64,000 nt of DNA from Psammoneis japonica (Eukaryota), in the NCBI GenBank assembly GCA_008632985.1, contig QPGO01000002.1:248001-312000 (forward strand). The letters are read 5' to 3'. Numbering within the stretch: position 1 is the first letter of the stretch; every line of letters begins with the position of its first letter. Positions 10,977-45,753 of this stretch are shown here, one piece after another. The translations under genes were made by a program, and so were the position numbers. The notes beneath the pieces are model-generated. The model ran no database searches. It was given only the letters and a program-made list of their open reading frames with translations, and was not told the DNA's origin.

Positions 10977-10977
10977 T

Positions 10978-24330: not shown

Positions 24331-24503
24331 TAGAAGTTGTTGGGTGTCTAGTTTTTATTTAGCTCGATCGTCTTTATCAAAGCTAACTAGAGATAACAAA
24401 TGATTTTCGTAAAATAATGAAGAGCTATTATTGGGTGTGACACTATGACACATCCGAACGTCATCTACGATATTCTTATACTTATTTCGGTCTTCCCCAC
24501 CGT
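24331..24503 (-). repeat. Shared downstream module, copy 2
   Basis: Matches 10796-10960. Confidence 0.85.
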
Positions 24504-24541
24504 TTGATCTCTCCTCTCTCCCCAGTGCAACAAAAAGAAGA

Positions 24542-25645
24542 TTACTTCCTTTTGAAGAAGCGAGCCATCATGCCACCCTTGAAGTTCTCTCGACGACGAG
24601 CAGCAGCATCTGCTGCATTGCCGGCAGCATCTGCTACATCGCCAGCAGCATCTACCGTAGCATCACCATCCACGTCGTCGTCGTCACCACCGCCCCCATT
24701 GGTAGTGTCAGTTGCGCCGCCGCCGCCTGCAACAGCATTGACATCGCCAGCAGCATCTACCGTAGCATCACCATCCACGTCGTCGTCGTCACCGCCCCTA
24801 TTGGTAGTGTCAGTTGTGCCGCCGCCGCCTGCAACAGCATCTGCTACATCGCCAGCAGCATCTACCGTAGCATCACCATCCACGTCGTCGTCGTCACCAC
24901 CGCCCCCATTGGTAGTGTCAGTTGCGCCGCCGCCGCCTGCAACAGCATTGACATCGCCAGCAGCATCTACCGTAGCATCAGAAGGGAAAAGAAAGAGATG
25001 TGAGCCACCCACCTTGATGCACAATCGCAACACATACACACCACTTACACACTCCTCCAGCAGCATCGGCGCCGCCCCTGTTCGTAGCGTCATTCGCGCC
25101 GCCACCGCCGCCGCCAGCAACAGTGACACGGGCGCCAATCCTTAGACCTGCAACCACCGCGGCAACATTGTTGGCTGCATCTGGGCCTAAGAAGAGAGAG
25201 AGAGAGGCATGCACACAGAGGTGTCAGCCACCCACCTTGACAAAACAATCACAACACACGCAAACTTACCTCTTCCTCCGACATTGATGTTGCTGACTCT
25301 TACTGTGGTGTATGTGGTGTTTGCAACCGGTGGAAGCTGAGGCGCGTTTGCAGCGGCGGGAGGCGGAAGTGGGCTTGCAGCGGCTGCTCTATGATCCATC
25401 AGCCGGCCCACAACTTCGCGGTAATGCTGATAGAAAGTTTCAAACCGCATTGTCCTCCAACGATCATCCTGGTCCTGGATTGCACGTATGAAGTCATTGT
25501 TGCGATGATTCGCCGTCGTGAACTCCAATTCGCGACTCTCAGGGAAATTGAACATCCTGGTGAGGAGAACAACGTCGTCCCGTGATGACCACCTGTGCCT
25601 TCCACCGCCACCGCCGTTTCCGTTGTTGTTGTTGTTGTTGTTCAT
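24542..25645 (-). CDS. ~312-aa protein with a Myb/SANT-like N-terminus and Gly/Asp/Ala repeat tail; introns 25269-25187 and 25048-24967
   Basis: ATG at 25645 (MNNNN..RHRWSSRDDVVLL). Two GTAAGT..TAG introns (83 and 82 nt) join three ORF-track segments in frame to the stop at 24542. The Myb-like call rests on the W..DD..LL pattern only. Confidence 0.7.
24625..24980. repeat. 105-bp tandem repeat (~3.3 units) within the coding exon
   Basis: tcgccagcagcatctaccgtagcatca recurs at 24639, 24744, 24849 and 24954. Confidence 0.95.
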
Positions 25646-25745
25646 GGCTGCTGTTTGTTTTTGTTTGCGGCTGAAGATGAGAGCGCTGGCGGATTGCGGA
25701 TCTGTAATAATTCTGGAGGTCGCTGCGTGCTGCATTGTGTCGTGC

Positions 25746-25762
25746 CACGTAGAATCTACGTG
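25746..25762. promoter_or_regulatory. Palindrome CACGTAGA-A-TCTACGTG in the shared upstream region of a divergent gene pair
   Basis: Perfect 8-bp inverted repeat with 1-nt spacer between ATG 25645(-) and ATG 26109(+). The same half-site occurs upstream of other family genes. Confidence 0.5.
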
Positions 25763-26108
25763 ACATGCAGTATGTACACCCACGTCGAAGATACAGCGCG
25801 CATGGTGGATGCTGAAAAGTTGGACGTGCTGTCTCTACGAGATTTTCATACTGTAAGGGTAGGGCCCATAAAGGAATTCGATTTGTGTAGATCTTATGTA
25901 GATCTTAGTACGTTTGTTAAATCCGTTATATTCTGTAGAAGCGTACGAGTTGACAGGTAGTAGACTTTTAACGGTTCTGAGTTTCTTTTACATTCATCTG
26001 CGCTATGTTGGGGTTCGCAATAACACCGTTGGTTTATTCCGGCCACATTTTCTTCCGATTTCAGTTTTTCAGAAAACGGCAAACATCATCGCCGCCGCTG
26101 TCATCACG

Positions 26109-28247
26109 ATGGAAAGAAGACGCCCGCAAGCCGCAAGCGAGGAACAGCAGCGTATCCATAAGATCGAGAATCTAGAGCGTATTAAGTTGTTTGACGAGAG
26201 TGACACATTGCAGTTTGGGGAAGCCGAAGGACGATTGAAAACGATTGAAAACTCGAAACTGTTCGTTTCCTCTATCGTGAAATGCTTGTTGGACGTCGAT
26301 GCCGAATGCTCCATTTATCTTGTGGGAAGTCACGTAAAAGCGTTGGAAGGGCCCATGAAAGGAGACCGATTGCCTTCTTTGGATTTGATTGTGGTTGCAG
26401 GAACCCATCGTCTTGAAAACACTCTCACGGAGATTGTTAGCACGGACAACAAGGAACCTTCCGTTCGTTCTCACTCGTTTGGAGACATGGGAATCGAATG
26501 GCGTGATGCCAAAACTACATTGGAGGAATACCAAGGACGAATTAAAACACTGGTTGCGTTGGAAAACTTGGAGGACTTGCCGGCATATCGTAACGAGAGA
26601 CTGATTGACCGCAATATGAAGTTCATGCTAGCACCCAGCGTGAATCTAAATGAGAATGACGTCCTGTTCGTTTTTCGTATTCTTGACACGGACGATGATG
26701 TCAACGACAAGCAACTTCTAGAATCCTTCCTGAACGGTGAATGTCATGGCCTGTATCCAGTGAAAGGAGTGTTCTTGAGAGGTGATTTATACTGTGATCT
26801 CGGTGACTGGGACCCCGCCAACGAGCTTGCATCTCCGCGTTCGAACAATGGTGCCGAAGTGGAAATCATATCACCAAGGGGTACGGACGAAGATTGCAAA
26901 AAGGTAAGATGGTCGACACTTGAAAAATACCTGCTTGTTCCACTCGTACTCTCTTTTATTCTCGCTCATCATTGCTCGTGTCGGATTGTTTGTTTTTATG
27001 GACAGTATTCTTTCACCGCCATCTTTCCTGACGCGAACGTGCCGACCCAGGACAGGGCAAAGTGGCTTTACAAAAACTTCAAGATCCTCACCCAAGACGT
27101 CATGGATAGAGCAATCGAAGCGCTAAGCAGAAACGAAAAAATGTTCAAGTTGTACGGCAAGGAGTTTTACTTCAAGTCCAACGGTTGGAAACTACATGCT
27201 CCCAAGGACTCTCCACCGGTACTCATGTTCCATGGCGACAAATGTGAAAACGATGTCGGCAAGCGCTTTCTAGTGGTTCAAGATCCAAACGATTTGGGGC
27301 CTGTTGTTGACAAGTTGAGGCTAGAACATGTCCTTCATGACCGACGTGCGAAGTCTAAAAATCGAAAAAAGTTTGTGGCTCACCTCGCAAAGAAAGTCGC
27401 TGGATCCAATGGCAAGCTTGTGGGGTTTCTTTGGAAATTCATTCGTCCACAAGAAGAGGAGCGTGAAGAGTTCCTCAATAAGTACAGCAAGAACCAGTCC
27501 TCACCTCGTCCTACTCTCAAGTCCATCAACCCCGGCGAGGACACTTTCAAGGATGAAACTGCTGTTGTGAGTAGTCTGCCAAGGCTGCCCCCGGAAACCG
27601 TAGCGGAGGTGAGTATTACGCGTTCCTTCAAATTGCCAAGAGGAAAGATCCCATTTGTCTCAAGCATTGTATTTCGTCCTCCTTTTGGTGCTGTCCTGCA
27701 GGGCAATTCTGACGATGCCTGTTCGTCGCCAGAGCTTGCCAGAATCTTCCAAAAGCACATGTTGGACCAATCGGGATCGAATGCCAACGTAACGACTTCC
27801 TTGGATCGTATCGCTACCATTCTTGCTGAAGGAGTCAAGCTTAAAAAGGAAGACCTCCAGATGCGAAAAGAAGAAGCAAAGCGACGTGACGAAGAACTCA
27901 TGATGCGAAAGGAAGAATACAAGGCAACCATTGAAGCTTTGAAAGTAGCACTCATGCAAGCTGTCCGTGGCTCCCGCGGACACAACAATGCCACCACTAC
28001 TGCCACACCAAATGCTGTCCCTGCGACAGCTGTCCGTGGCTCCCGCAGCCGCAACAATGCGCGAAAGATGTTCAACGCAGGTGACAAATATCGTGTAACC
28101 CGTGGACAAGCAATGAATGAGGTGGTGAAGATAGTTCGTAGGACAGGGCGTGACTCTTACATGGTGCGGACGAGCGATGGCACAGAGCTCTCAAAGAGAG
28201 GCTACCATTTGGAGATATTCAATGGCGCTCTCAACGATGCCGAGTAA
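26109..28247 (+). CDS. Large family member: degenerate nucleotidyltransferase-like N-terminal motif, coiled coil, C-terminal KOW/SH3-like domain; probable introns 26904-27005 and 27609-27701
   Basis: Long ORF with ATG at 26109. Both GT..AG segments (102 and 93 nt) are homologous to clear frame-shifting introns in paralogues (41516-41606 and 11861-11774). Confidence 0.8.
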   Translation: MERRRPQAASEEQQRIHKIENLERIKLFDESDTLQFGEAEGRLKTIENSKLFVSSIVKCLLDVDAECSIYLVGSHVKALEGPMKGDRLPSLDLIVVAGTHRLENTLTEIVSTDNKEPSVRSHSFGDMGIEWRDAKTTLEEYQGRIKTLVALENLEDLPAYRNERLIDRNMKFMLAPSVNLNENDVLFVFRILDTDDDVNDKQLLESFLNGECHGLYPVKGVFLRGDLYCDLGDWDPANELASPRSNNGAEVEIISPRGTDEDCKKVRWSTLEKYLLVPLVLSFILAHHCSCRIVCFYGQYSFTAIFPDANVPTQDRAKWLYKNFKILTQDVMDRAIEALSRNEKMFKLYGKEFYFKSNGWKLHAPKDSPPVLMFHGDKCENDVGKRFLVVQDPNDLGPVVDKLRLEHVLHDRRAKSKNRKKFVAHLAKKVAGSNGKLVGFLWKFIRPQEEEREEFLNKYSKNQSSPRPTLKSINPGEDTFKDETAVVSSLPRLPPETVAEVSITRSFKLPRGKIPFVSSIVFRPPFGAVLQGNSDDACSSPELARIFQKHMLDQSGSNANVTTSLDRIATILAEGVKLKKEDLQMRKEEAKRRDEELMMRKEEYKATIEALKVALMQAVRGSRGHNNATTTATPNAVPATAVRGSRSRNNARKMFNAGDKYRVTRGQAMNEVVKIVRRTGRDSYMVRTSDGTELSKRGYHLEIFNGALNDAE

Positions 28248-28282
28248 TCTTCTTTTTGTTGCCCTGGGGGGGCGAGAGACGA

Positions 28283-28435
28283 AACGGTAGAAAGTCTTAT
28301 CTCACTGTGGGGAAGGCGAAGAATATCGTACGGTAGATGACGAGCGGATCTATCATGCTGTCACGCGCAATAATAGCTCTTTATTTTACGAAAATCCTTT
28401 GATATCTCTAGCTAGCATTGATAAAGACGGTCGAG
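28283..28435 (+). repeat. Shared downstream module, copy 3
   Basis: Reverse complement of 10830-10976. Confidence 0.8.
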
Positions 28436-31400
28436 TATGCAAAGAACAGTAAAAGTGGCAAGAAGCTTTCTGGAAAGCGTTATCGCACGTTGGATGATCC
28501 CCTTGTAAGGCGCATCATGCAATGGCGAAACCCGTTTGCAGAGCAGTAGCGAAGCTTGAGAGATGCGCTGTTGACACCATGGAATTGTTGCGACAGACCC
28601 CCGTTAAATACAATCTATCCCTTGTTTTGGAACGGCAAGTAGGAAGTCCCGCAAAACTGGAGTTACTCCACAGGATGAAGCCATTCTAGAGCACCCCAAG
28701 AGAATCGACATTGGCCTCAATCGTGGGGATCTCCCGTCAATGATGAAACCGTTGAACGCATGACAACGGACGAGCACACGTCCCTCTGGTATACGGACGA
28801 GAATGACAAGGAGACTTACTCGGAGAACAGGGCGAGGATTCGTGGTCGTGAAAAGGTCAAGGACTCGGTAGAGACGAGCCAACACACTTGCCATGAGTCC
28901 GTGCATCATCGACTTGGAACATGATCTTTGAAGATGTCAACAAAACGGTCTCAAAGGACCTCCTCAAATTGCTGCTAGCACTCGTCGTACCACTGGCACT
29001 ACTGTCTCACGAGTCAGTCAGCTGTTGATGGAATGACTGACATGATGCCCGCCATCTTCTGCTCTTGCATCGAGACAGAGCTGCGTCAAACTCTTGGGTC
29101 CAATTTCTGACATGGACAGTGCAACAAAACTGCTGTAGATGGTCTCAGCTGCAGCAACTTCTTTACATGAAGATAGACAGAAAGGATCCGTGCGAGCAGG
29201 GCACTCTTGCTGCACACAACACTCGTCACCCAGTGTCGCCTCACGCCTCTCACGTGACGCGACATGCTTGAATCCCCTGCTTCTTCCCTTACACTGTCAT
29301 TCAGAGTCGTAAGAACTTCGGGCTGCCGACGAAATAGGGGCTTCCTGAACTGAACTAAACTGTTAACCAACCAGCTTTGGTTCATCCTTTTCAGCTTTGT
29401 TGGTGTCAAGTCTTTGATTGCTTGAGCTTTTTGCTTTTGACCTTGACTGGGATGAGGCTCGACAATCAAGAACTCTTCAAGGATCTCCTCTTTGGCCCCA
29501 CTCTTCTTCAATTCTTCAATGTCAGTAGATGTCCTCCTGATCCAGTGCTGCTCAATCTTGTCAGCAACATTTTGGCTGGTTGACACAAAATCCGATCCAT
29601 GCCAACATCCTTTTCCTTCCAAAGAACTTCATGTTGACTCTGGACATGGAATCCAATGACATGTTTGGTCCACCTTCCCAGTCCAATCTTTTGGGAATCA
29701 AGTTGTCTTAAATCCCTTGGCTTGCCATTTCTTGTTGATGTGAGGATCGTGTCATTTCATTCATTGCTTGATGGACCTGGCATGAAAAAAGCTTCCCGTT
29801 GATCAGAGGACAATCCAACAAAGATTTGTTGCTTCAAATGGCATGTCTTCTGCATGACCAAGATGTGCTCAGTGGTGTGCTTTGTGTGTCTCTCATTTGC
29901 CTGCCAGATGCCAGCTTGTGTAGCCTCCTCTGTTTTGGGTTGATCTCCCATTTCAATTCATTGCTTGTTTTCTCCCGAGTGCCCCAAACATGTTTCTTTT
30001 GTGCCATGTCTCGCTTTGCATGCTCTTCTTTCTCACTCTTGACTGCAAAAAGATTCTCCTTCACAACTGCTTTCTCCATGTCAGACCAACAAATGGTTGC
30101 ATCTCTCAAGAGATCTCCCAACATCCTTGTGCAGAGAGTTCCATGCTGCACTGCCTGTGATGGCACACTCAATCAAAGGGCACTCAAGCAGCGATCCAAG
30201 AGGTTGTTTCTGAATGAATGCTTGAAATGTCTTGCAACAAGAAGGCAATCAAAAAAATGCACCTGCATTTCATTCATTGTTTGAGAGCTTTTTTTTGCTT
30301 GCTCAATCATCCAGTTGCAAGCATTTGCTGCCAACACTTCCTCTGCAAAGGCAGCCGTCATGAACCAGGGGTGCACTGCAGCAGGAGCTGCTGCTGCGGC
30401 AGCTTCAACACACATTTCCGGGATGGCAGGGTTGAAAAAGTCAAGAAGAAATGACAGATTCTTCTCAGCTGCACTTTCTCCATCTGTTCCTGTGAATTGA
30501 TCCCCAGTGAATGAGGCACAATCTTCACTTGAAAGAATTGCTTTGTTGAAATTGTTGTTCTTCCAATGGGAGGGGCCTCCAACAACAACCAATTTTCTGC
30601 AATGGCGCACAGGTTTCATTGAATCTTCATCCAACATCCTGTCCATCATCTCTGCCATGGCTCCATCTGCCAAAACGAACACAGACTCTTCTGACATTGC
30701 GACTGCCTGCTGCAAGTGCTTTCTCAAACACTTCCATTTGGGTGTCAGCTTGGCAAGTCAATGCACCAGCAACACTGTGCACAGTTCCCCTCAAGCCAAT
30801 GTCATGTTCTAAATGGGACAAGGACAAAGACAGTTCTTGCTCCATGCAGCATCAACTTCAACAACAGTGCTGACAATGTGATCTTTGTGATCATCCTCCT
30901 CACAAGAACAAAGGCTTTTGATGTCTTGAAGGAATGCGGTGGAGAGCACATGCTGTTGCACTCATCTGTTCCCCAAGGCATTGTGCCAAGGTTGTGAAGA
31001 ACAGCAGCAAAATTGGATGGCACCACTTCTCCAATGTTGTGTGTGCAGCTCTTGCTTGGCAAGAAAACTGGTGGTGCTTTGTCACATCATGTGTGCTCTG
31101 CTTCATTTGTGTTCTCCAGTCAGCGTCATTGCAAGCAAGCGGATGGTCTTGATTGCAGGGCTGCTTGCCAACTGGTGGTGCCTGCACCAACCTTGCAGTC
31201 TGTTCAGCTGAGCTGCCCTTGCCATCCTTGAAGTTGCAATTGTCTCAAGAACTCATTAGAGGCGTGTGCATTCCAAGGTCTGTGCATTGAGTTATTTCCT
31301 CTGCCACCCTCCTGGACACATCAATTGAGAGTGTGTTTTGTGAGACTTGGTCAATTGCGTCCAAAGCAAGAGATCATGTGGTTGAGTTGGTTGGCTTCCC

Positions 31401-34000
31401 TTCACTTGGAATGAGAAAATGTTTGCCATGTGTCCAACATCCTTCCTTGGGCAAACTGACCAAACCATCAAATCTTGACAAGTGGCAGCAACAAACACCC
31501 AGGGCTGGTGTCCAGCACATGTTTCAGGCTGACATTTTAAAATGGAACGTGACCTGTGCTCACAGCAATTTCCCAAGCATTTTTCATGGCAGTTTGTTGG
31601 ACATGACGGCAGTTGCCCAAGAAAGGTGCAACCACCTGAAAATCATTGTCACAAAAGTTGCAAATGTTGAGCTTGGAGACCATCTGTGGCTTGATCAAAA
31701 CGAGCTCCACCTTCGCTGCATTGTGCTGCTGGATGCAAGCAATGCCTTTCTGCCACAGGTCAAGTGCAGGAAAGTTGGCCATCATCACAGGACAGTTTCC
31801 ACCAGGAACAAATTCCACAGAGTGGGAGCAGCCTGGAGGGATGAGGAATGCCATCAGAAGAGCAGCAATGGCTGGTTGGTCATTCTGAGTGGCAGGGTTG
31901 CCAAAGCAAAGGTGTTCAAGAGACGCCGGATCTTGGCTGCCATCTGCAAGAAGCAGACCTTTGATGTCATCTGGAGGAATCTTGGCTTGAGGCAAGTTGA
32001 GTGCAACGACATCTGCACGATGCACACAATGGTCATGAAGTGTCCTCAGAAATGTTGGTGAGTGCCCAACATGGGGACAACTTCCCCAACAGAGTCAGAA
32101 AAGATCAACAAGAACTTGACTTGGTTTCCATCATTGATGAAAGAAATGAGCATTGCAACAGGATGATGCAGCCTCAGCAGAACAACAGGGCTGGTCAATC
32201 TGACCCCACAGACATGGTCAGCAAGAGCACCGCTGGAATCACAGCAAGAAAGGACCAGCTCAGACCAGTTGAGAGCAAACTCAGTCTGCATTCTCAAGTG
32301 GGGACAACAATGCTTGACAGGAGAAGCTTTGCCATGCTCAACAGCAGCAAGGATGTCAGCGGCCATGGTGGGTTGGGAGACAGAGAGAACACTTGGAAGG
32401 CAGGTGCAAAAAGGCAAAACCAAAGTTTTGTTGGAGAGAAATGAAGTTTTCAGATGAAAAATTTGGTGTGGAATGCAGTGGAAATCATGCCAGAAAACTG
32501 GAGAGGTTCAGGGAAGATTGCTTTGCATGATCGGAGTCAGGTTTGCAAGGCTCTGCAAGACCAAGAGCGGACAGAGCAGGTCAAAATTTTGACAAACAGA
32601 AAGAAATTGAAGGGAAAACAAGGGTCTGTCCTAAGAGATTTTAAATCTCAGAAAGTTGTGGTCACAATTTTTCTCACAGGACACCCCAGAATTGCTGATG
32701 ATCCACCAGCTGCATCAGGAATCAAACATTCACAGAATCCTGGATCAGAGGGATGTGTTTGAAGATGCACGTGAGTTTGTGTCAGAGCTTGTGCATTGAT
32801 TTTAGTTGAGATGGTTGTGAGGAGAATGTCCTCACTTGGACACTTGCAAAGACAAAGCATGTTCAGAACACAGTGTTGCACAGAAGTGATTCATGTGGAG
32901 CTGTTGCAACAGTGTCAGAGCACAGTCTGTTCATGAATGAATGCAAGATGGGTGTGAGATCTGAGAACCACAATGACAGAGGGAAAAAAGGAGAGAGATG
33001 TGATGCAGAGGCCAATTTTGTAGAGCAACCTGACAACTGCAGGGTGACAGACCTGGAGAGTGTTGGGCTCCTGTGTTGACAGTGTGGCCATGTTCTGATG
33101 TTTTGTGGTCTGACAAAACCAGGTGGATCAAACACAATCCTGATCAGTTGGCTTGTGAAGTCATTCATCTCACATCTTGAAGAAGTCAACAACATGAGAG
33201 AAGGTCTTGCTGCACTTGCTCTTCTTGTTCTCATGCCCTCAAATCTCATCTTTGCTTCTGCCGACAACACCGCCACTTCCAGTGTCACCTCTTCCCATTG
33301 CTGCTGACAGTGTCACCTCGACCACCAGCAGCATGGCCATCACCACTGCCGCTGCTCAAATCTGCCAAGGCTGCTGCAACGCCATTTGCCACCACATCTG
33401 AGCAGAGGAGACAACAAAAAAAAAGCAGTCAGTGACTTGGTGCAGCGGGCATGCTGGAGCACAGAAAAAGTTGCCGACATCAATGGCATCAGCATTGGCA
33501 CCACTTGGCCACAGTGGCTGAGGACCTCAGCTCTGCAGCTGGCACCACATGCCAAACCCCAGCACTCAGCTTGCTTTTGTGGGCAACAAAGTGCCGGCCA
33601 AGGGTGCAATCCTTCACTCTTTGTTGGGGCACCATGGTGTCCATGCAGGCAAGTGGGAGCAACAGCAAAGGAAAGGTCCAGCATCATTGGTTGCCACCAG
33701 AGTCTGGCCAGTCAAAGATCTCTGCCCCCCCACCACCTGTCTGTTTTTTCCTGCATGGGGTCTGGCGCCAAAAACACAGAAGATGTTGTGTGTGTGTTTC
33801 TCTTGTCCAATTGCAAGGAAAGTTGCTGCACTTGAGATCTTCTCTGGCACTGCCAGATGGTGCTTTCATTGATGTCTGTCTGTTGAGAGCTGAAAAAGCA
33901 CATGGCACCACTCTTCCTTCCTCAATGGCCAGCATTGTGGCACACCACATGTGCGCAACAATGTTTTCTGTTTTTGGGCTCCACTTTGCTTTTCTTGTTG

Positions 34001-34271
34001 TTTCTCCAACACAGCCATTGCACAGCAGAAAGAAAAAGTGGAAAAGATTGCAAACACACCACTGGCCATTGTTGTTGTTTGCTGATTGCTGAGAAAATTG
34101 AAAGTTGAGAGTTTGTGTTGAGAACATTCAATTTTGACTCTTTCTCACATCTTTCCTGTTGTTTTCTCCACCACAGCTGGTGCACAACACAAACAAAAAG
34201 TGGAAAAGAGTGCAAACATGTCATTGGCCATTGTGGTTGGTTGCTGGTTGCTGGGTTGCTGAACAAAGTGA
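34001..34271. repeat. ~100-bp direct repeat x2
   Basis: ttctcca..acagc..aaaaagtggaaaaga.tgcaaaca..tggccattgt at ~34001 and ~34164. Confidence 0.75.
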
Positions 34272-37200
34272 GCATTTCTGTTTTTGGCTGTGGGAAAAAA
34301 ATGTGCGGATGACTGCTGCCTGTCTTTGCAACAATCTTTGCATGCATTTGCAGGCACATGTGTGCGTGTGTGGTGTCAGCAGAAACACCAGAGTGGGGAA
34401 CAATTTGCCCGGGGGCAATCAAACAATTTGGGCCACCTTTGCTTTTTGGTTTGGGGCTTGGCTGCATCGCAATGAATGAAGCGACACCCACATGCTCAGT
34501 TTTCAATTTGGTGCCTTCATTGACAATGTGGGTCAACCACAGACAACCCCACCACTGCTTCAATTTTTTGTTTGCTCTCTCCCAACACATCAGTGTTCCC
34601 TGCTCTTCATTTTCAATGCAGCCATTCCATTGACTCCATTTGTTTTCAATTTTCCAATTCATTGCTGAACATTTAAACTGCTGCCTGTTGTGGTGTGTCT
34701 GCCACCCACAAATCCATGTCTTTGGTGTTCTCCTCTTCTTCATCTCCTGCTTCCAACTGTTTGCTGTTGTCATCTTGGGTCTCTTCTGTCCCATCCACTT
34801 GCTCCCAGAACTGTCTCTGCCAAACCTTGTCACACTTGTCTGTGTCTTTGCTCAATCTTTTTTGGCCAATCGCACTTCCCAATTTTTTGCATCTGTCCAG
34901 CCCCTTCTTGCTCTGACCCTGTTGACCCTTTTGTGCTTGATTCATTTGATTGCCCTGCTTCTTGCTGCTTCTTTTCCACCTTCAACTCCTCCTTTGTTTT
35001 GCCATGCATGTGCGCCCACTTGCACCAATTGTTCTCCAACACCAGCAGGCTGAATGCCTTGTTGCTTGCAGATGCCAACACCTGTTCAAGCAATGTTTTG
35101 ATTTGAGCCAGTGCTTCCACATTGTCTTTCCCACCACTGTTGGCAGGAAGTGCAGGGTGAAGCAGCTGTGGGCATCCATGTCATCTCTCCCCTTTAGCAT
35201 GTCATCCAGTGATGGCATCTCTGCACTTGCATTTGCTCGTGCATTTCTCTTGTCATGTCAATGCACCCTTCTCACTCACACAACACAAAGCAATGATGTG
35301 CGAGCATTGTTCTCCATTGTCCCGCAACCTCTGCAATCAGTTTTGATGCAGCACTTGCAGAAGAACTCTTTCTTGAGTTCCAAACATGCATTGTTCCTCT
35401 TTCTTGTCATCTGCCTTCACACCTTGTCCTTTGACAATTTCCAGAACCAAGCTCTTGTTTCTTGGGGCACATTGATCTCAGAGAGCACAGTGTCAAATGC
35501 TCCGCCATTGCAATTTTTTGTGGCCTTTCTGTTCAGGAATTTGTGCTGTTGGAACAACACATTCTTGCAGCAGTTCTCCAAAACAAGCTTGGCCCTGTCG
35601 ACAATTTGTTTGTTGCATCACTTCTTCCTTCTTTTCTTGCTGGTCATGTCATCTTCCATGCTGGACAAGGCCAGAGCCCCACCTGTCACAACTGATCCAC
35701 CTTCACCCATTTGCATCATCCTGTGTTGTGGCCAACCCATCCTGCCCCTGTTCTTGGCAAGTCCTCCACAATTGCCACTTGCATTGCTCTGACATCTCTC
35801 ACCTCATTTTGCTGTGGGCTTTGGAGCAGTGCTGTTGCTTCCCTCAGGCTTGGCATGGTGGAGCACACATTTTGACTGGTTTGTTAAAAGTGACTTTGTT
35901 CACACACTGTGCTGCAAATCATCCAGTGCTGGGCCCCACGACGGCCTGCTGACATGCCTGCCCTGCATGTGCCTGTTGCCACACATTCCCACATGCGCCT
36001 TCTCTGTTCACGTCTCATTGGTCAGATTCATCTAAATGCAGGAATGCATGTGTGACACATGTGGTTTGTGCGATGCAGTGCAGGCAGCCACAAAATGGTG
36101 TGGCTGTGAAACTGCAACTCCCCAAGTGCGCAAAAAAGGGAAATGGTGGCAAGGAAGGACAGTGAGTGCATCTGAACCAACTCATCAAGAACAACATTGA
36201 TTGATGAGAGCAAATGGCCAAATGGATCAAGGTTGCACTTCATCTTTAGAGCGTCAAAGCCGGGGATGCAATCATCAGTCAATGGGCCACTTCTTGTGTG
36301 GTCCAAGCCAACAGATTTGCGTGGCTCTGGCAATGAGTTGAAAATGGACCAGACCTTGTCAATGTGTGGTGAGTGAATGGTTTTGGCTGGATGCCACCTG
36401 TTGGTCATGTTCACTGCACATGCATCCTGTCGCAGCTGTTTGTTGTGGCTCACCTGCATTGCTGAAGGCTGCCTCAGAGAGAGACACAACAGGTGCTTTG
36501 GTTGTCTGAAGGCTGTTGTGGCTGTTGAGGTGGCAATCCAAAAGCCCACTGAGTTTTGTGTTGGCCAAACGCAGGGAAGGAACACAACAACCATCAGCAA
36601 TTTTGTTGCCTTTCTTTGCGTTGATGTCCAACGGGTCATTGTGGTTAAACAGAACTTGTCCGGGGGCAAACCAAGGGACATTGCCAACTTGCTTGATGTG
36701 TTTGGAAACAGCAACAAACCCAGATGTCATGACAGGATCTCATTGACAGGCCAGACATGGCCAACTGGCACGTTGTTGTGCAAATTCTTCCTTCCCGTGC
36801 ATTGACTGGATGCAGAGCCACAGCCCATGAACATGCCAAGCATCTGGCGAACAGCGCAAGAGGAGGAAGAGCTGGCAGCAGGAGTTTTGCCAGCTTTCTT
36901 GGAGAGGGCCTTGAAATCCATTAGATCAAGGATGGGGTGACCCTCATTGACGATGTGAAAGCAGTTGTTGTGGTGGCTCTGGTTTGGAGGACAGACTTCA
37001 AATTGGATGGTGCCCTTGCAACGGAGCTGTGCAATGGCCAGGTGCATGTCTGAGTGTGCCATCATGTGATGACAGTGCTTCCCATTAGCACAAGCAGATG
37101 CCCAACCCCTGTCTAGATTGTGCAGCACAAAGTGAGCGCAAGTGATGTGTGTCCAATGAGCGCAGCTGGCCTGCCCTGGCTTGCAAAGTGTGAAAACTCT

Positions 37201-37797
37201 CTTCCAATGGGATTGTTTGGGCTCCACTCAGTCAGACCATGCTGGTGTCCTTGAGTTCTCTCCATTGTCTGGGAACAGAGCATGGGACAGTGGATGACTG
37301 TCAAGTGTTGACAGGAGGGGATGGCACCACATCGTCCGGAAGTGCCGGGCCATGCCCACTCCATTCATTTGTGTTTGCGCATCAGCTGAGGGAGTGCTTG
37401 TCAACAACACATCTGGCGGTGCAGCAGCAGGAGGCAAAGATGCTGCTGCAATGTCAGGGGGGGGACCGGGCTCAACATGCGGAACATTTGCCAAAGACCA
37501 GGGGGAAGTGGCAGGAGAAGAACCTGTGTGTTGGTCAACAGAGTCAACAAAACCAAGATTGACACCTTTGCAAATGCCACATGAGGTGGCGTCATGACAA
37601 TTGACCACACCCAGAGTGGGGCAGCCTCCAAAAGCTGCACCCCTGCAAAAGGCAAGGGCCATGGGATGAACCTTGGCAGCACACTCTCCGGCTTGCAAAG
37701 TGAGGAGGGAGCTGGGGACACAAGCTGACAAAGTCAGCGCAGGGAGCATCCGCTGACATTGCTGCACCCCCAATTGGAGTGGGGGGCATGGGCCATG

Positions 37798-38250
37798 TGC
37801 AACACACAGCTGCCAACAAGAGTCAACGCATCACGGCGACGTGTTGCAGCCTTTAAATGTCACAATGGGCGTGACAAAAACAACCTTTTGTCTGCATGCA
37901 CACTACATTGTGAATTCACAGCGGAGTGGTTCAATGCGCAACCATTGGGCAGGAGGCCAGGGGTTCGAAACCCTGAGTGGGAGTTGTCTGCAGCAACGTT
38001 GATCACTGTCGAACGCGCAAAACTCTGTGCAGTTCTGCACGTTCCTTCGCACGCACCCACACTGTTCCGCCAAAAACGTGCAGTGTCAGTGCACGTTAGT
38101 AAAGAGCCGCATGGACGCGTGACACATGGGGAGGAGTGCAACATGCAGCTGCCAATGAGAGTTGGTGCATCACGGCGACGTGTTGCAGCCTTTAAATGTC
38201 ACAATGGGCGTGACAAAAACAACCTTTTGTCTGCATGCATGCTGCACATG
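37798..38250 (+). repeat. ~110-bp direct repeats (37798-37910, 38138-38250) enclosing a tRNA-like segment
   Basis: Identical core gcatcacggcgacgtgttgcagcctttaaatgtcacaatgggcgtgacaaaaacaaccttttgtctgcatgca. Confidence 0.9.
37912..37983 (+). pseudogene. tRNA-derived sequence (pseudo-tRNA or SINE head) with Pol III A- and B-box
   Basis: A-box-like cagcggagtggttcaatgcg (TAGC.GAGTGGT.TAA.GCG before TA loss) and B-box GGTTCGAAACC in a caggg/ccctg stem. Anticodon arm not intact. Confidence 0.55.
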
Positions 38251-40404
38251 GGATGAACCCTGACAGCAACATCAGATGAGCTGCCAAACAAAACAGGACA
38301 TCCGGCTGCACTCCCAACAATGAAGGGGGCCATGGGATGAACCCTGGCAGCATGGCGGACATCTCTGGTGCCATCCAAGCAAGGTGGCATTGCACAAATC
38401 TGAGTGGATGAAGACCCGCAGTTCTTGATCTGGCGACTTTGCTTCCCAATCCTGGGCTGCACTGTTGCAGTGCTTCTTTGATGGACGAGAGTGGTGGGTG
38501 CCCCTCCTTGCCTTTGAGGAGCCAGATTGGGAAGAGCCGCAGCTGATGGCGCTGGTGAGGATGTGTTGTTTGCATGGCAAAATGACAAAAAATTTTGAAC
38601 AAAAATTTCGTGGCAGGACACAAGTGGGCAAACAAAAATTTCAGAGCAAACAAACTTGCAGGTTGAACAGAACTTCAACACAATCAAAGGCTGAAGGTTG
38701 AAATTTTTGTGGTCATTGGAAGACAGCTTCACCATGAAAAAAAAAAGAGGTGACACATTGCACAAAAAACAAGAGCATCAGTTTGAAAGAGAAGAAGAAT
38801 TTTGTGTGGGCAGTCCATGCAGAGAACATGCAGAAAGGAAGCCCTCCGGGAAACATGAGGGGTGGTGTGAAAATGATGAAAGCTTGTTAAATTTTAAATG
38901 AACTTGGCCCCTCATTTGAGGAACCAAAACTTGATGGAACAATTTGATCCCCTGCTCATCAAACCTGCCTCTGATGAAGTGTGGTGTGGAGTCACCACTG
39001 AATGAGTTTGAGAGGTGACAGACTTTTGCTGGTGCACAATCTGTGTGGCCCACAGGGAGCATGAGTTTGTGTGTGTTCCTGAGGAGGCCTGCACACATCA
39101 TTGAAGTTTCTGATGCTTCAAATGCACACCACACACACATGCCCAAAAATCTTGCAGAACACCCAAAGCAAACAGGGCGGTGTTGTAAAACACTTCTCAA
39201 AATGCCTTTCAAGTGAGTGCAGCAAGCAAAACAATCACTGTGGCCAAAAAACAGAGCCGCCATCAACAAAACAGACTCTGTCTCTTTTGCACTCTCCAAC
39301 AGCAGCACAACAATGCCCGGCAATGTTGTGGCAAGCAACCCAAGCAGCGCTCACTGATCTGTTGAGACAAGAAGATTGAAGTGACTGTGGACAACATTTG
39401 TGTGCTTCATTCCTTGGCCAAGTTGGGTTTGTGCTCATTGTTTTTGCAGTCACTTCATCTCACAACATTTTGACCCTCTCACTGCATTTGGGTGCAATGC
39501 ATTTCTTCTCATGTGCACTCACCCATCTGGTGCCAATCAGCTTTTGGCTTCCCCTGCAGGGTGTGGCCAGTTAGAGACATTGACAATGAAGCCAAATGTG
39601 TGTGGCCAACTGGTCAGCACTCCGGCACTCATTTTTTTGCAGAGGACTCTTGCCAAGTCCATCTCATTTTTTCACACAGATGACAGACACACCACTCTGT
39701 GGCTCATCAAAACTCAGCCAGCATGACCAGCGCTGTGCCTCCTGCTCTTGTTCTGGCGCTGCAGACTTGCACACAGTGTGCACCACAAGCAAACAAGGCA
39801 AGCCAATGAGCAGTCAATGGAGGGGCATTTGCACATTCAGCGCAAGTGCCCACATGCAGGCATTGTCTCAAGAGGTCAATCACAAACTGATGCCAGCACA
39901 GTTGACCTTTGCAGGTGCGCATGCTTCAAAGAATGACTCCTCCTCCTTGCACAAATCCTTGGCACCCAAATGCAAACTCGACATGCCATGTGTCAGCTGT
40001 TTGGCTTCTTTTGTGCTGTGGGGCCAGACAAAAAAAAAAGCAGCACTTTTTACAAAAAAAAAGAAGAGCTTTGTGTGGGTCACTTGCTGCCCCATCACCT
40101 TGTGTTGCTGTCCCAAGAGTCAAGATGACAAGAGGAAGTTTCTGAGCAGCACAAGTCTCTTTAAAACAAGTCACCAGTGCAGCAGATCATGGTGTTGGCA
40201 TTTGGCAAGGGACATTGATTGTGCACTCCACTCTTGCAACAGGGAAATGTTGCCCTCCTTGGCCACCAGGTTGCAAGAATTGCCAAATGAAAAACCAAGC
40301 CAAGACACCATGCACTGGCCAAAGCGTCTGGTGGTGAGGTCTTTTTCAGCACTCTTGCCCTCTCATGGTTGCATGAAGCACTCCTTTTTTGGAATGGTGG
40401 GTTG

Positions 40405-41422
40405 TGGTGCACACAACATGGGGAACCACTTGTTCCTGTTTTTTGAGCAGCACTGGTCAGCTTTGTTGCAGCCAACAACTTTTTTCAGCCTGGAGCTTGT
40501 CAAACACCCCTTTTGGAGCAGCAGCCAACAATGACTCTCACTCGGCTGCCAAGAGGGGGTGGCTCATTGTTTGTTTTTAATCAGCTTGACATTTCAGCAC
40601 ATTTGCAAAGGGCTGATGTGGTTGACAAGCTCCATTGAGCAGCTGCAACACCACCCCCTTTTGGGGATCTTGTCAGCAAGTTGCTGGTGCTGTGGGTCAC
40701 TTTTTGATGTGTTCTTGCTTGAGGTGCCTTGGGTGCATCAGATGTGTCTTGTGATGCAACAACAGACCAGACTGCTGCTGCCACATGAGGTGCTGATGAA
40801 GTCAAGAAGGTGTGCTGTGTGCCAGCAAAGATGAGGAAAAATTTGCCCTGAGCTCACACCAGCGGAGCTGGGTGCTCTTGCTCCCTGTTTTGTGGCAGCA
40901 GCGCTGGAGTGTGGGGTGTGGGGGAGTGCCTGGGTCCACCAGTGAGCTGGCTGCGTGCCTCAGTAGTTCCGAGTGAAGCCTGCCTTCTCGTGGTGGAATG
41001 TGCTGCATGTAAAGAAGGCAAATTCCAAAATTCATAAAAGATAAGTCAGCACCACAGACAGGCCGATGAAATGATGACGTCGCGTGAGATGTTTTTGGCG
41101 GGACAGGAATTTGAAAAACGCGCGTACGCGCGCACGCGCCGAATTCGAAAAAGATCCGTTGGGCGTGTAGAAACAATACATGATTCTACGGAGAATCCAC
41201 TTTGTGGTACATAAAGTCACGTAGGTTCTACGGAATGCATCAAAAATCGAGTCAAAAGCATCACATCGCCATGCGTCACAACTCAACAGCATTGACAACA
41301 TTTGACGTTGCATTGATATCATTAACAGGATGAACTTCTCCAAAGGCGCTCTCTCCGCAGTGACTGGCGGAGCCAACGACAATAACAACGACGGGAGCGA
41401 CTCGGAGGGATTGCGATCGCCG
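40405..41422. repeat. Inverted copy of 11931-13028
   Basis: Reverse-complement homology. Confidence 0.9.
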
Positions 41423-42449
41423 CATTCTTCCGTCGACGAGTTGTTCTCACCGCGTTCCAACAACACCGCCGACGAGCTTGCATCTCTGCGTTCGAATGGC
41501 ACCGAGGAAAGAAAGGTGAGATTGTTTAACTCAGTACCGTTAGTACGCGTTCGCTTGTCTTCTCGCTCATCATCACTCGTGTCGCATTGTTTGTTCTTAT
41601 GGACAGCATTCTTTCACTGCCGTTTTTCCTGACGAGGACGTTCCAACGGATGAGGCTCTCTTCACGCAACCAACTGCCAACCGGCACCAAGACAGTCCCG
41701 CCGCCATGATGACTCCCGGACAAGCCCCTTCTCGTTTTGCAAGGACGTTCACTCCAGAAGTGTACAAGGAGATTGGAGAGTTGTTGAAGACTCAGGTACG
41801 AGACGAAGACCAGGTGATTGACTTTCATGTGAAACAGCAAAAACTCATGGAGACCAATCAGAATCAGATGAACACTTCTCTCGTAAAGGTTGAGGAACAC
41901 AACCGACAGCGCCAGCGGTTCAAGGAGCAGCAACTTGATTATCTGATGAACGCAAGCACTACACCAACTCCCAACAAGCGTTTCAAGTCGAATCATCCGT
42001 CGTCTGGATTCACGTCGAACGAGTTCAATGCAACCTTACCTTCGGCAAAGTCGGATGGTCCAGCTCCATTCAGGCAGAACGTGTCTCCCGTCTTCAATGC
42101 AAATAATGATTCTATGAAGAAGAATGTCAACTTTGGACAATATCACACTAGGAATCTTGATTCCCACCACACGTTTCGCATGGATGACTACGGTGTTGAT
42201 ACGGTCCAGAAGGAGAAGGAAAATGAACCGAATGAGGAGGCCGGCGTTGCCACTCTGGGTTCCAAGCATGTGGTTGCATTTGCCAAGGGTGATATTGTGT
42301 ACTGCACAAAAGATGGCAAGAAATATAAGGCGGAGATTCTCGATACTTACAAGGATGACAAGCTCGATCCATATTACTTTGTTCGTGTCTTCAAGCCCAC
42401 CAGACCCGTTGACAAGGACACGGAATCTAAATACCTTACCGCCTCTTAG
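41330..42449 (+). CDS. ~342-aa chimeric family member with C-terminal Tudor-like domain; intron 41516-41606
   Basis: Exon 1 (41330-41515) splices GTGAG..ACAG in frame to ORF 41706-42449. The C-terminus FAKGDIVYCTKDGKKYKAEILD..DPYYFVRVF fits the Tudor/royal-family pattern. Confidence 0.75.
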
Positions 42450-45400
42450 ATACGAGACAGAATTGAAACATGATCAATAGACGGATACGAAACGGAGTAG
42501 CGCGTATAATGCATTGATTATAATAAGGCACAGTTTTCATAATGGACCTTACTAGTTATCTGGCTCGTTTTGTTCGTAGCATAGTATACCGGTACCGTTT
42601 TTTCGTGGAGCGTCGCCAGATGATAAGGGTTTTGCGTATTCAGCTGCTCTTATCTTTCGTCTTGGACATCTTGATCACTCCCACGCTCGTCTTGTGGATA
42701 CTTTTATCGATAAGTCTAGACAAATAATTCTTACATCTTTCATAGCTTGTTCTTGAATGATAATCTTGTTCCCAGATTCGGGAATGAGATGATCGGTAAG
42801 ACTCAGAAAATTGAATATCGCTAGCAGCATCCAAGATCCTTCACCTTGGAGTCGCGTATTCAAAGAGTCACTATATCCCTTTCGCTAACCGAAGCGAAGT
42901 CGGCGTGCGATTTGTCTTTGGATTTACACAGTGCTCGTGAACACGCACCAAATCACAGCGAGGAGCAGTTTCTAAAGAAATCATGGACATAGCACAATGG
43001 TGAGAGACAGCTATACGATTAGCTTCCCTTTGATAAGTTCCACTCACCATAACGAAATCCCGATCCGATTTGCGCAGCGGCAAACGGCATTTGTTGAATA
43101 TTTGCGTCCGAGAGACTTTAAATTTACATAATGACCCTGTGCAATTTCCGGCCTCAAATAGCAAACGCTCGAACCTTCGGGTCCGACGCTGGTCTTGATA
43201 TAAGGCTCTTCAGAAAAAGGATTTGCCTGCGTCATGGAGCCGAGTGTGTCACACATTCCCATCCTCAAGAACTGGACGACGCAATGCTTTTCTTTCTCCC
43301 CTCAAGCGCGCGTAGTGTACATTACTAAGAATCTTTGACGAAGAATCTTTGACCTTATTGAACAGCGGGTTGATAAAGATGCCATACTTTGTCCGAGCTA
43401 CTGCAAAGCTGTCGATTCGATTAAAACTCACCGAGACGATCACCCCTAGACAGCAGAGCCCTCTCTCTAGATTGCAACTCTAAACTTTCTATTCTGCCTA
43501 CCAGCTTTTACCTTTCACGATTCGATAATGGCAGACGCTCTCTGGTTCCAGATTGGAGTTTCTGGTCTTGAAAACTCGCCGTGCTTGCGCAACAGCATAG
43601 TATGTCGCAACACCCCATCGGTCTTTGCTGGCCTCCAGTACGAACACGTACAGTCGTATGCTCAAAATCGTGGTTGCAACCATAGAAAGATAGGATTGAA
43701 TAGCCACATCATATTCAAAGTAGATATTGGACCCATTTTTTGGAACACACCTTTGTTGACAAGATTGCCTGGTGCCTGTTTCTGTTTCGAAAGCGCCTCT
43801 AATCCGATCACAAATGCCTTACGCTCTGAAAAGAGATGCCAACCATGCATTTTCCAGTCATTCTGCGGTTTCGGTCCCTTTTTTTCGGTACACAATGACT
43901 CAATCGCAGGGCTTCATTGTACGCAATTCTAAGAGCCGCGCCGGTAACAACTTCTGACGCCGTTGATTGCAATAGGAAACCTGCCCATTTCTTTTTCATT
44001 CCATACGAGATCTACCGTTTTGCTTACAGGAATAGCCGACTGGGCAAGTAAAGTTCAGAAAGCTGCTCCTGTGGAGACAAGAACAAAACGGCGTTGAAGC
44101 AACAGGCTTCGCACACGGCGTGTTAAAGTTCTGGATGCTCTACTCAGCAGCGTATTGCTTACAATACCATTCAGTATCAATACAACTACAAAGAATGAAA
44201 CGAAGCGATACATCCAAGCGGAGAATGTGCTTCAGCGAGAGGCTACCGGTATTTCTGTTTCTTGAAATCCTTATGTCGTTCAGATCCTCTAATTTTTTTT
44301 AACTTCAAAAATTGAAATTTTGATCACAACGGATGCCGCCTTATAATCGAATGCTTAAAACCTGAATATCCAATTGAAGATTTGACCGTTAGCTTTACAT
44401 TGAATATGAGGCTTGCCCGTTAACTTGTATTATATATATATATATATTTTTAAATTTTCAATCAATTTTAATTGAAGGTCTGCTGCCGGAACGAGCGAAG
44501 TTGACGCCGAACAAAATGACACAACAACTTGAAACTACGCTGCACCGCAAACCACGACACTTCCACCGGCACTGTAGTAGAGAGTAGAGGCATAACGCTT
44601 GACCTCGATGACATGCCATAGAGGCAACAAACTTTCAACAGCAAATCGCAGCACACAGTCTGACGTCGTCTCAGGTCATTGCAGCAGCAAAACGGTTTTC
44701 TCTCCGGTCCGGTCGGTGTAGCGCTCACCGCATTTTCTTCACTCTAGCGCGGAACTGCGGCTTTACATTGAAGAAATATGGACTTGAATGCGTCTCTTCT
44801 CACGGCCATTAGAATTGGCACTGCAGACGATGTTCGCAGCGTTCTTCAAGGTGGAGCAAACCCCAACGCAACTGTGACTCTCCGCCCACCCGCGGACGAA
44901 GACGATGATCCGCTTGTTGTCAAACCAGTCTTTTTTGTTATCATCTGTGATGATGCAGCCGATCGAGACGCCAAACTTCAGGTCTTGCTGGATGCTGGAG
45001 CAAGTCCGACGGATGAGCTGGAAGGTTACACACCACTGGGTTCTGCATGTTTGGCCGGTCGTCCGTCCCTGGTGCAAATTCTGTTGTCTCATGGAGTGGA
45101 TGTAAACAACCAATGCTCTCCTCATGGGACACCATTGCATGAAGCTGCATTCCATGAAAATGCTGAAATTTGTCTGCTGTTGTTGCAGAATGGTGCTGAT
45201 GCAAATTCAAAGGATCCCGACGGTTTGTCGCCGCTTCACGCTGCAACGCACCGTGGAGCCGTAGACGTGGCGCGAGTGCTCCTGGCGAACGGAGCTCGTA
45301 TTAATGACGCCACAAATGATTTTTCTCTAACGCCTTTGCACTTTGCCGGTGTTGCAGACATGGCAAGATTGCTCGTGGAACACGGAGCTGATTTGAGCGT

Positions 45401-45753
45401 TACTTGCGTCCGAGGACAAACGGCGTTGCAGCGCGCACTTAGGAAGGGCAAACATGCGGTGGTCTCTGTCTTGATGGAGGCGCATGGGCAGAAACTATTG
45501 AAGTGTGATCATCTTCATCCGATGTTATGGGCCCATGTCTTGGCCAAAGTGGGAGAGAGGAGCACGGACATGTCTAGAGTGGGCATCAATTACGCCTTAC
45601 TTCGCGAAAAACCGGATCTGTTTGGCTACAAGAATGCCGGCAGAAAAAGAAAGCAACCCGATCGTTCTGTTCCAGAAGGGTAAAACAACACAGTATGGCA
45701 GTATTTGTTGTAGCTGATACTCTTTATATATAGACATGCTATGGGGAGTGTAC
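41655..45753 (+). repeat. Segmental duplication copy 1 (copy 2 at 55443-60437)
   Basis: Collinear high identity over ~4.1 kb. Copy 2 carries two extra TIR insertions. Confidence 0.95.
44778..45683 (+). CDS. Ankyrin-repeat protein (301 aa)
   Basis: Repeated G.TPLH.AA..G...V..LL..GAD.N motifs. C-terminal LWAHVL..YALLREKPDLF motif of a kind common in diatom proteins. Confidence 0.92.
   Translation: MDLNASLLTAIRIGTADDVRSVLQGGANPNATVTLRPPADEDDDPLVVKPVFFVIICDDAADRDAKLQVLLDAGASPTDELEGYTPLGSACLAGRPSLVQILLSHGVDVNNQCSPHGTPLHEAAFHENAEICLLLLQNGADANSKDPDGLSPLHAATHRGAVDVARVLLANGARINDATNDFSLTPLHFAGVADMARLLVEHGADLSVTCVRGQTALQRALRKGKHAVVSVLMEAHGQKLLKCDHLHPMLWAHVLAKVGERSTDMSRVGINYALLREKPDLFGYKNAGRKRKQPDRSVPEG

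Follow-up and report, generated by a model that had tools for sequence, protein, structure and literature searches.

The question raised by this locus is why the dinucleotide step TpA (TA) should have almost vanished from a few sharply bounded blocks within a 64,000-nucleotide stretch of DNA from Psammoneis japonica (assembly GCA_008632985.1, contig QPGO01000002.1, positions 248,001 to 312,000 of the forward strand; this whole stretch is referred to as the window, and all coordinates below are its own), and what the few TAs that remain there reveal about the agent responsible. The original prediction, made for positions 29010–40960, held that surviving TAs follow a symmetric hierarchy of flanking bases, with YTAR (Y, pyrimidine; R, purine) the most resistant context and RTAY eliminated, and that this was the fingerprint of an enzyme targeting a duplex TpA step rather than a one-strand motif. 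The part of that proposal concerned with a mutational fingerprint stood, a uniform rate of loss being rejected, while the preference for a duplex target over a one-strand motif did not.

A table of dinucleotides per 500 bp contained five stretches with 0–5 TAs per interval as against 9–38 elsewhere. Borders were set from the TA positions, yielding five blocks (B1–B5, to which no strand is assigned) that occupy 28,335 bp of the window, and the 35.7 kb outside them served as the background for all densities and expectations:

B1, 4960–7140: TA 13% and CG 65% of background; an island of five TAs at 6009–6132.
B2, 12330–20510: TA 3–6%; CG 54% over the initial 2.2 kb, 12.5% thereafter; a CA-rich array at ~16800–17780.
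B3, 29370–40960: the block of the original prediction, with 32 TAs in 11.6 kb (24 YTAR, 8 mixed, 0 RTAY); CG 20%.
B3 left edge, 29010–29370: half-converted, with 8 TAs and no RTAY.
B4, 47965–48890: short; TA 5% and CG 75% of background.
B5, 58545–64000: runs past the end of the window; TA 24% and CG 95% at 58545–59430, TA 5% and CG 46% at 59431–64000.

The phenomenon is regionally confined, the blocks measuring from 0.9 to at least 11.6 kb and being TpA-poor and CpA/TpG-rich: TA stands at about 5% and CG at 12–95% of background density, and in block interiors the observed/expected ratio (O/E) is 0.00–0.11 for TA and 1.4–2.4 for TG and CA. Borders are abrupt, as at 20004–20514, which is without TA and is followed by three TAs in 18 bp. 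Per bp, the summed density of TA, CG, TG and CA is 0.240–0.257 in the blocks as compared with 0.2447 in the background, and by virtue of this near-equality the loss of TA and CG is balanced by the gain of TG and CA. The G+C profile is flat (0.493 in the blocks, 0.475 outside) because the change at TpA raises G+C and that at CpG lowers it. Inspection of the block edges revealed no evident target-site duplication or terminal structure.

The CA-rich array of B2 (16800–17780) is a degenerate tandem array of 7/14-nt periodicity with units like CCATCCAGCA, and its GC skew, which falls to −0.47, distorts the strand-specific tetramer counts of that block. It was also apparent that within the blocks, for example at 33300–35800, TGA is the remaining stop codon, and long overlapping open frames occur on all six frames; these spurious frames result from the loss of TAA and TAG.

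The 84 TAs surviving in the blocks comprised 51 YTAR, 33 mixed (YTAY or RTAR) and no RTAY, whereas the 1499 outside comprised 241 YTAR, 826 mixed and 432 RTAY (29%), a three-class difference (chi-square 113.8, p = 1.9e-25) that bears out the predicted order and leaves the survivor tetramers far from background frequencies. Restriction to strict interiors (26,081 bp, without the edges of the blocks, a small island and a half-converted zone) left 68 TAs, of which 46 were YTAR, 22 mixed and none RTAY, and among 20,000 random draws of 68 background TAs none either lacked RTAY or contained as many YTAR. The same hierarchy was seen separately in B2, B3 and B5, and the interval originally singled out (29010–40960) held 40 TAs, 26 of them YTAR and 14 mixed, again with no RTAY. 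The fourteen coordinates offered as examples of residual TA all proved to be YTAR, two of them being off by one (15263 and 20004). Survivor counts in the ten tetramer classes, with expectations from background density (flank-matched normalisation to pyrimidine-purine steps changed them little), were as follows:

TTAA: 22 survivors, 41 expected.
CTAA/TTAG: 25 survivors, 91 expected.
GTAA/TTAC: 14 survivors, 143 expected.
CTAC/GTAG: 13 survivors, 191 expected.
CTAG: 4 survivors, 60 expected.
ATAA/TTAT: 5 survivors, 195 expected.
ATAG/CTAT: 1 survivor, 127 expected.
ATAC/GTAT: 0 survivors, 168 expected.
GTAC: 0 survivors, 95 expected.
ATAT: 0 survivors, 80 expected.

Some GTAG/CTAC and GTAA/TTAC sites had indeed been foreseen among the survivors, as had the absence from the blocks of ATAT, GTAC and ATAC/GTAT, the RTAY tetramers, for which the pooled outcome was none against 343 expected. 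The scale of survival is graded rather than a simple division between pyrimidine and purine flanks. A model with a uniform rate was rejected (deviance 150.5 on 9 degrees of freedom), whereas all ten classes were reproduced (deviance 8.5 on 6 degrees of freedom) by a four-parameter model that gives each flank one rate of loss according to the 3' neighbour of the A, read on the strand of that A (T 3.59, C 2.01, G 1.07, A 0.29). Bases further out also mattered: T made up 61% of the bases at the second flanking position among survivors and 29% at background sites, TAAA could be read on one strand in 37 of the 68 TAs left in strict interiors, and the most resistant context was TTTAAA. Taken together, these data support the hierarchy as a mutational fingerprint, and not as a consequence of chance, ancestral composition or selection.

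Conversion could be observed directly in a pair of ankyrin-repeat paralogues, one of which lies outside the blocks and the other inside B5:

Unconverted paralogue, 44577–45751, plus strand: ankyrin-repeat frame at 44772–45683; taken as the reference state.
Converted paralogue, 59257–60435, plus strand: inside B5; still matches ankyrin Pfam models.

The two copies are 90.9% identical, and 97.2% identical when scored as purine versus pyrimidine only. The 34 TAs of the normal copy became 17 CA, 10 TG and 3 TC in the block copy and remained TA in 4 cases, and these four account for every TA that the block copy contains. Its 70 CGs became 13 CA, 9 TG and 4 other steps, with 44 still CG. Counted per strand, A had changed to G at 27 of 68 sites after T, compared with 7 of 161 after A, 8 of 193 after C and 4 of 153 after G, and C had changed to T at 22 of 140 CG sites as against 6 of 448 elsewhere. 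Of 88 CA sites in the normal copy 83 were still CA and none had become TA, and TC had become CC at 3 of 73 sites. CA and TG outcomes were interleaved along the single 1.2 kb copy. A second pair (41655–44395 and 55443–58220), which lies outside the blocks and is not polarisable, served only as a control, and retained 96 of 128 TAs. A self-comparison of the window scored on purines and pyrimidines alone revealed no further converted/unconverted pairs, so that per-context rates derived from paralogues rest on some 1.4 kb. The ankyrin frame had no close relative in a protein search, the best match being 41% identical.

Both pairs belong to a segmental duplication of ~4–5 kb (41655–45751 and 55443–60435), the second copy of which crosses from normal DNA into B5; the conversion border of B5 falls within this duplicated sequence.

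Whether the process reads one strand or the duplex is not a matter that survivors can decide, since their counts are strand-symmetric by construction and both kinds of model fit them (deviance 8.52 for additive and 8.73 for multiplicative flank effects). The duplex target originally deduced is not supported, survivor symmetry being expected under either model and the products being polar. The deciding quantity is the base changed at asymmetric sites, in other words whether a TG or a CA form results. The excess of RCAR and RTGR over background was respectively +51 and +8 in B1, +15 and +2 in B4, and +162 and +29 in B5 (+228 and +39 for these three blocks), and +354 and +112 in B3 and +221 and +166 in B2, which contains the CA-rich repeat, giving +803 and +317 for all blocks; the corresponding RCAR:RTGR ratio was 1998:1335 in the blocks and 1505:1283 outside. 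For the three blocks with least CpG loss (B1, B4 and B5), the TG-form share of products was compared with that predicted by the rule based on the 3' neighbour:

ATAA: observed 0.02, predicted 0.07.
GTAA: observed 0.01, predicted 0.13.
ATAG: observed 0.29, predicted 0.23.
CTAA: observed 0.35, predicted 0.21.
CTAC: observed 0.78, predicted 0.65.
ATAC: observed 0.57, predicted 0.36.

Observed and predicted shares lay on the same side of one half in five of the six tetramers, ATAC being the exception. In the ankyrin pair YTAY sites had yielded TG and CA equally (5 and 5), just as originally noted, yet RTAR sites had yielded 6 CA and 1 TG; pooled in one orientation, the asymmetric sites gave 11:6. 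Direct per-strand counts of A-to-G change, though small, were 10 of 17 for TAC, 7 of 18 for TAT, 6 of 17 for TAG and 4 of 16 for TAA. The relative order of T and C at the +1 position differed between the two sources of data, T exceeding C in the survivor rates and C being at or above T in the product shares. The likely interpretation of these sequence data is a strand-wise motif, 5'-T-A-Y over T-A-G over T-A-A, with an additional outer-flank effect, and this appears more likely than recognition of the duplex, although the protection afforded by TAAA/TTTA, perhaps acting on both strands, may reflect some contribution of the duplex.

Loss of CG accompanied that of TA on a different time-scale, as was evident when the blocks were arranged by survival relative to background:

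B5, left part: TA 0.24, CG 0.95.
B4: TA 0.05, CG 0.75.
B1: TA 0.13, CG 0.65.
B5, right part: TA 0.05, CG 0.46.
B3: TA 0.066, CG 0.20.
B2, main part: TA 0.063, CG 0.125.

TA is lost first and reaches a plateau at about 5–6%, and CG continues to fall by a slower process. The YTAR share of survivors climbs with block age, from 3 of 12 in B1 through 10 of 19 in B5 to 38 of 51 in B2 and B3 together. CG survival spans 0.125–0.95 across the blocks, with 22 of 70 CGs converted in the paralogue pair, and varies with the nucleotide preceding the C (T 0.25, A 0.27, C 0.35, G 0.47), GCGC being the best-surviving context (65 of 95 expected). Among RCGR sites of the ankyrin pair, 8 had become RCAR and 1 RTGR.

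The history of the converted DNA was approached through its repeats and relics:

Plavaka/KDZ-type transposase relic, 60903–62018, plus strand: in B5; a 372-codon frame, residues 120–350 of which align with the part of its homologues that immediately follows their Plavaka domain.
Inverted repeat, left arm, 11914–13012, plus strand: 1.1 kb; conversion starts ~400 bp into the arm.
Inverted repeat, right arm, 40419–41439, minus strand: conversion ends at approximately the equivalent position.

An earlier Atlas look-up of the B5 frame had provided weak transposase leads, which a profile search then supported. The frame has 110 homologues in a representative library (best E = 6e-72), and in 27 of the 46 homologues scanned, 16 of them above the Pfam cut-off, a Plavaka match lies just upstream of the aligned part; because its homologues match the Plavaka model, B5 is taken to contain the relic of a DNA transposon. 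Six metagenomic loci encoding relatives of this transposase exhibited a TA O/E of 0.48–0.77, and since these relatives have ordinary TA content, TA poverty is not a trait of the element family. A Pfam search of 82 long frames from the window and 150 block frames of at least 90 codons produced nothing credible in B1–B4, so that evidence for the foreign origin of the targets comes from the Plavaka-like relic of B5; a 314-codon frame in B3 had no usable match in the Atlas look-up.

Conversion happened in place: one paralogue was converted and the other was not, the inverted-repeat arms differ by nine TG/CA swaps, and the relatives of the transposase are TA-normal. Nor is duplication as such the trigger, one ankyrin copy alone having been converted and several repeats outside the blocks, including duplicates of 97% and 88% identity, being intact. 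The converted ankyrin copy sits between the transposase relic and a fragment (58465–58733) that also occurs in B2 (19277–19532), a position that would fit the spreading of a silenced domain over neighbouring DNA. The inverted repeat itself encloses B2 and B3 along with the 8.9 kb of normal DNA between them, and the outer ~400 bp of each arm is unconverted and contains eight shared TAs; its arms may mark the two ends of a single element of 29.5 kb, or else represent a segmental duplication in inverted orientation. The intervening 20510–29370 is of normal composition, 20878–21956 being a 97% copy of positions 1–1072, and it has further repeats in common with 1–2031 and 10727–11929; a possible origin is a later insertion that was spared conversion.

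Contigs from a public sequencing run, which may relate to the source sample, were also compared with the window, 16 of ~2375 pieces and 40 of ~2000 differences being covered. They carry B3 in TA-poor form, with 57 differences in 4169 bp over five long pieces among those listed (~98.6% identity; a sixth listed piece, differing at 89 of 509 bp, resembles a paralogue and is not counted), compared with 2 differences in 1084 bp outside the blocks among the pieces listed. Among the differences listed are three swaps between CA and TG, one CA versus TA, and two TG or CA versus CG. The disparity hints at a present-day excess of mutation in B3, for which strain, allelic or paralogue differences are alternative causes.

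Starting from the observed conversion in place, its confinement to blocks, its flank-dependent rates and the loss of TA ahead of CG, the explanation that we favour, and consider moderately probable, is that the blocks are silenced chromatin domains of a diatom-like nuclear genome, at least partly derived from transposons, in which TpA and CpG have undergone transitions in situ, the TpA change being made by a deaminase that obeys a strand-wise rule. A fast, enzyme-like T:A to C:G change would be restricted to the TpA step and a slower C:G to T:A change to CpG, both ending in TpG/CpA. The TpA process would operate on each strand separately, requiring a T 5' of the A (equivalently, an A 3' of the mutated T), at a rate set by the 3' neighbour of that A (highest for a pyrimidine, lower for G and lowest for A), with a TAAA/TTTA run conferring further protection. 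RTAY would be lost first because it presents a good motif on both strands, and YTAR would persist or re-form because it presents a poor one on both, from which the symmetric hierarchy originally noted would follow. The agent would most likely be a TadA/ADAT2-type deaminase that acts on adenine in polynucleotides and is, it is supposed, directed to silenced DNA, and the loss of CpG would be attributable to deamination of 5-methylcytosine, supposed to occur in the same domains.

Several observations weigh against this account. TTTAAA occurs 10 times in the blocks compared with 3.7 predicted from background density, and survival alone is consequently not a full explanation; it is suggested, without proof, that ordinary transitions re-create TA from CA and TG, and that the new TAs last only in resistant contexts. 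TGTAAA survives (6 cases) though the opposite strand reads TAC, and ATAC yields ATGC at least as often as ACAC, an exception suggesting an influence of the nucleotide two places to the 5' side of the A; either that nucleotide or some property of the duplex would appear to matter. The direct A-to-G counts for TAY (17 of 35) and TAR (10 of 33) are few, and those for ATAA/TTAT are reversed (1 versus 2). The polarity derives mainly from the composition of the blocks relative to the 35.7 kb background, and because CpG conversion feeds the same product classes, with the same polarity in the paralogue pair, the compositional argument is suggestive and not decisive. B2 and B3 furthermore contained no recognisable foreign gene when their frames were searched with Pfam, and an A:T to G:C change reads the same in sequence whether it originated at the A or at the T.

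That the agent instead binds double-stranded TpA, with both flanks tuning a single rate and either strand changed equally, is regarded as unlikely. The multiplicative model expressing this idea and its additive counterpart fit the survivors equally well, YTAY sites on the plus strand divided 5:5 in the ankyrin pair, TAAA/TTTA seems protective even in TGTAAA with TAC opposite, and TG and CA products stand side by side without long strand-biased tracts; set against these are the polar products of asymmetric sites, evident both in the excess of RCAR over RTGR and in the altered RCAR:RTGR ratio given above, and the finding that ATAA and GTAA assumed the TG form in only 1–2% of cases in blocks with low CpG loss. 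Rather more doubtful is an attack on the thymine, in which a TET/JBP-type dioxygenase would oxidise the T of TpA to hydroxymethyl- or formyl-uracil that then pairs with G, the rule becoming purine-T-A. The equivalence in sequence of A-to-G and opposite-strand T-to-C change, together with the presence of a Plavaka/KDZ-type relic in converted B5, gives this some appeal, since such transposons travel with TET/JBP genes in fungi, the hydroxymethyluracil of dinoflagellates is found mostly at TpA and TpC, and formyluracil can pair wrongly with G. However, the ankyrin pair displayed no excess of T-to-C change at TpC, and the authors of a preprint on Bigelowiella natans favour adenine deamination, though without testing it, for a comparable process (10.64898/2026.01.13.699255).

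It is very improbable that the survivors are retained stop codons or functional motifs, or that the blocks arrived TA-poor as a family trait. Each non-RTAY tetramer does contain TAA or TAG on one strand, the median frame upstream of a surviving TAR is 29 codons compared with 23 for TGA (p = 0.03), TTTAAA exceeds its background density, and the inverted-repeat arms agree in most TG/CA choices, apart from the nine swaps. Yet frames of at least 150 codons are closed by 6 of 135 surviving TAR and by 43 of 1305 TGA, TAA survivors outnumber TAG (88 to 47) though a change of TAA to TGA retains the stop, ATAA and ATAG have nearly gone (6 versus 322 expected) despite containing stops, and the unconverted paralogue and the six TA-normal relatives indicate conversion in place. 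More improbable still is a sequencing or assembly artefact such as the systematic miscalling of modified bases: modified DNA can give context-specific miscalls and the blocks are probably modified, but the public-run contigs, bearing in mind their possible relation to the source, have the same TA-poor sequence over 4.2 kb of B3, the loss of TA is matched base for base by the gain of TG and CA, and the paralogue differences include ordinary substitutions.

The favoured explanation, deamination of adenine at a strand-wise TpA motif, also has to be set against systems already described. For ADAR, the second-best 5' neighbour of the edited A is another A, a preference not seen here, where change at AA (7 of 161) was not raised relative to that at CA (8 of 193). 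Hyper-editing by ADAR followed by re-integration was rejected as a candidate: a re-integrated copy would display A-to-G or T-to-C change, not both, because ADAR acts on double-stranded RNA, whereas 17 CA and 10 TG are mixed in one copy. ADAR does convert A to G with U as the preferred 5' neighbour (10.64898/2026.01.13.699255). Repeat-induced point mutation (RIP) of fungi resembles the present case in being a regional, dinucleotide-specific transition hypermutation that inactivates repeats and transposons, with sharp borders and some leakage, but RIP makes TpA from CpA, whereas here TpA is destroyed and none of 88 CA became TA, and RIP strikes both duplicates, whereas here one ankyrin copy was converted and repeats outside the blocks were untouched; it too was rejected, TpA being removed and not made, and duplicates not both being mutated. 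Decay of CpG through 5-methylcytosine matches the CG to TG/CA change in the same blocks (22 of 70 in the pair, with survival of 12–20% in the older blocks), but would cover the CpG half only, the slower of the two processes. Diatoms have been reported to methylate transposons through DNMT5 (PMC9998398).

The closest comparison is with B. natans, for which 230 of 231 new mutations in an integrated giant virus and a virophage, observed in mutation-accumulation lines, were A-to-G or T-to-C, all at TpA, with 124 TpA-poor, CpA+TpG-rich clusters genome-wide in which transposon and viral sequences are enriched, and for which an ADAT2-like adenine deaminase was proposed as the agent (Mettrop et al., 10.64898/2026.01.13.699255). 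Both cases involve T:A to C:G change at TpA giving TpG/CpA, confined to regions of a nuclear genome. They differ in that B. natans is a chlorarachniophyte whereas the host here is diatom-like, that TA here has fallen to about 5% of background and is near saturation whereas the active virus region of B. natans is still 3.3% TpA, that CpG decay accompanies TpA loss here whereas CpG goes unmentioned in the main text of the preprint, and that a flank rule is provided here whereas that main text gives no flanking context (its Table S2 may hold such data). Searches of the literature on diatoms and other algae did not find the same signature, and yielded the preprint as the one comparable report. The core TpA process is accordingly one already described in B. 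natans, to which the host lineage, the flank rule, the coupling to CpG and the timing series are additions.

Regarding the putative enzyme, TadA reads U33-A34-C35-G36 in the anticodon loop, that is U(−1) A(0) C(+1) G(+2) (PMC10586758), and the requirement here for T at −1 with C or T favoured at +1 is similar, a resemblance in specificity only. In DNA, A and C are both substrates of an ADAT2 from amphioxus, whose motifs are TCG for cytidine and GAA for adenosine (PMC10354150); the former would also give CpG to TpG change, and the latter differs from TA. By analogy with this enzyme, for which such dual action has been demonstrated, a single ADAT2-type deaminase could act on both A and the cytosine of CpG.

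The remaining contents of the window lie between the blocks. An exon-like frame at 46340–46942 (minus strand) corresponds to a sugar-nucleotide transporter of the SLC35B1 type, with identities of up to 85% and none near-identical, and all 16 of the organism-named matches among those listed come from what we take to be diatom genera. From this one gene the host looks like a diatom. At 2113–2577 (minus strand) there is the start of an SNF2-related domain, which, like the transporter exon, is a host-type gene fragment. Neither the protein search nor viral contigs yielded relatives of a 781-codon frame at 25902–28247 (plus strand), whose only match was a sub-threshold one to DUF5755 (E = 4.6e-4). 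Nearby, at 24625–24980, is a tandem repeat of 105-nt period in which copies one and three are identical.

As to what these findings mean, it may tentatively be suggested that diatoms and chlorarachniophytes share a chromatin-guided base-editing defence, in effect a reverse RIP, by which silenced transposons and viruses would be cleared of TpA and possibly, if one ADAT2-type deaminase acts on both A and C, of CpG too; the T-A-Y rule would be the specificity of that enzyme. If true, the shared defence would be old in the stramenopile-alveolate-rhizarian group, or would have spread among its members, and if the host is a diatom, TpA-specific hypermutation would extend to a second algal lineage, one that is ecologically dominant. 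The flank rule amounts to a testable specification of the enzyme (T at −1, then Y over G over A at +1, with TAAA protection), while the TA-before-CG series combined with the mass balance would offer a clock for dating silenced insertions. The blocks are also of consequence for annotation, being invisible in G+C, yielding false long frames and hiding transposons from homology searches.

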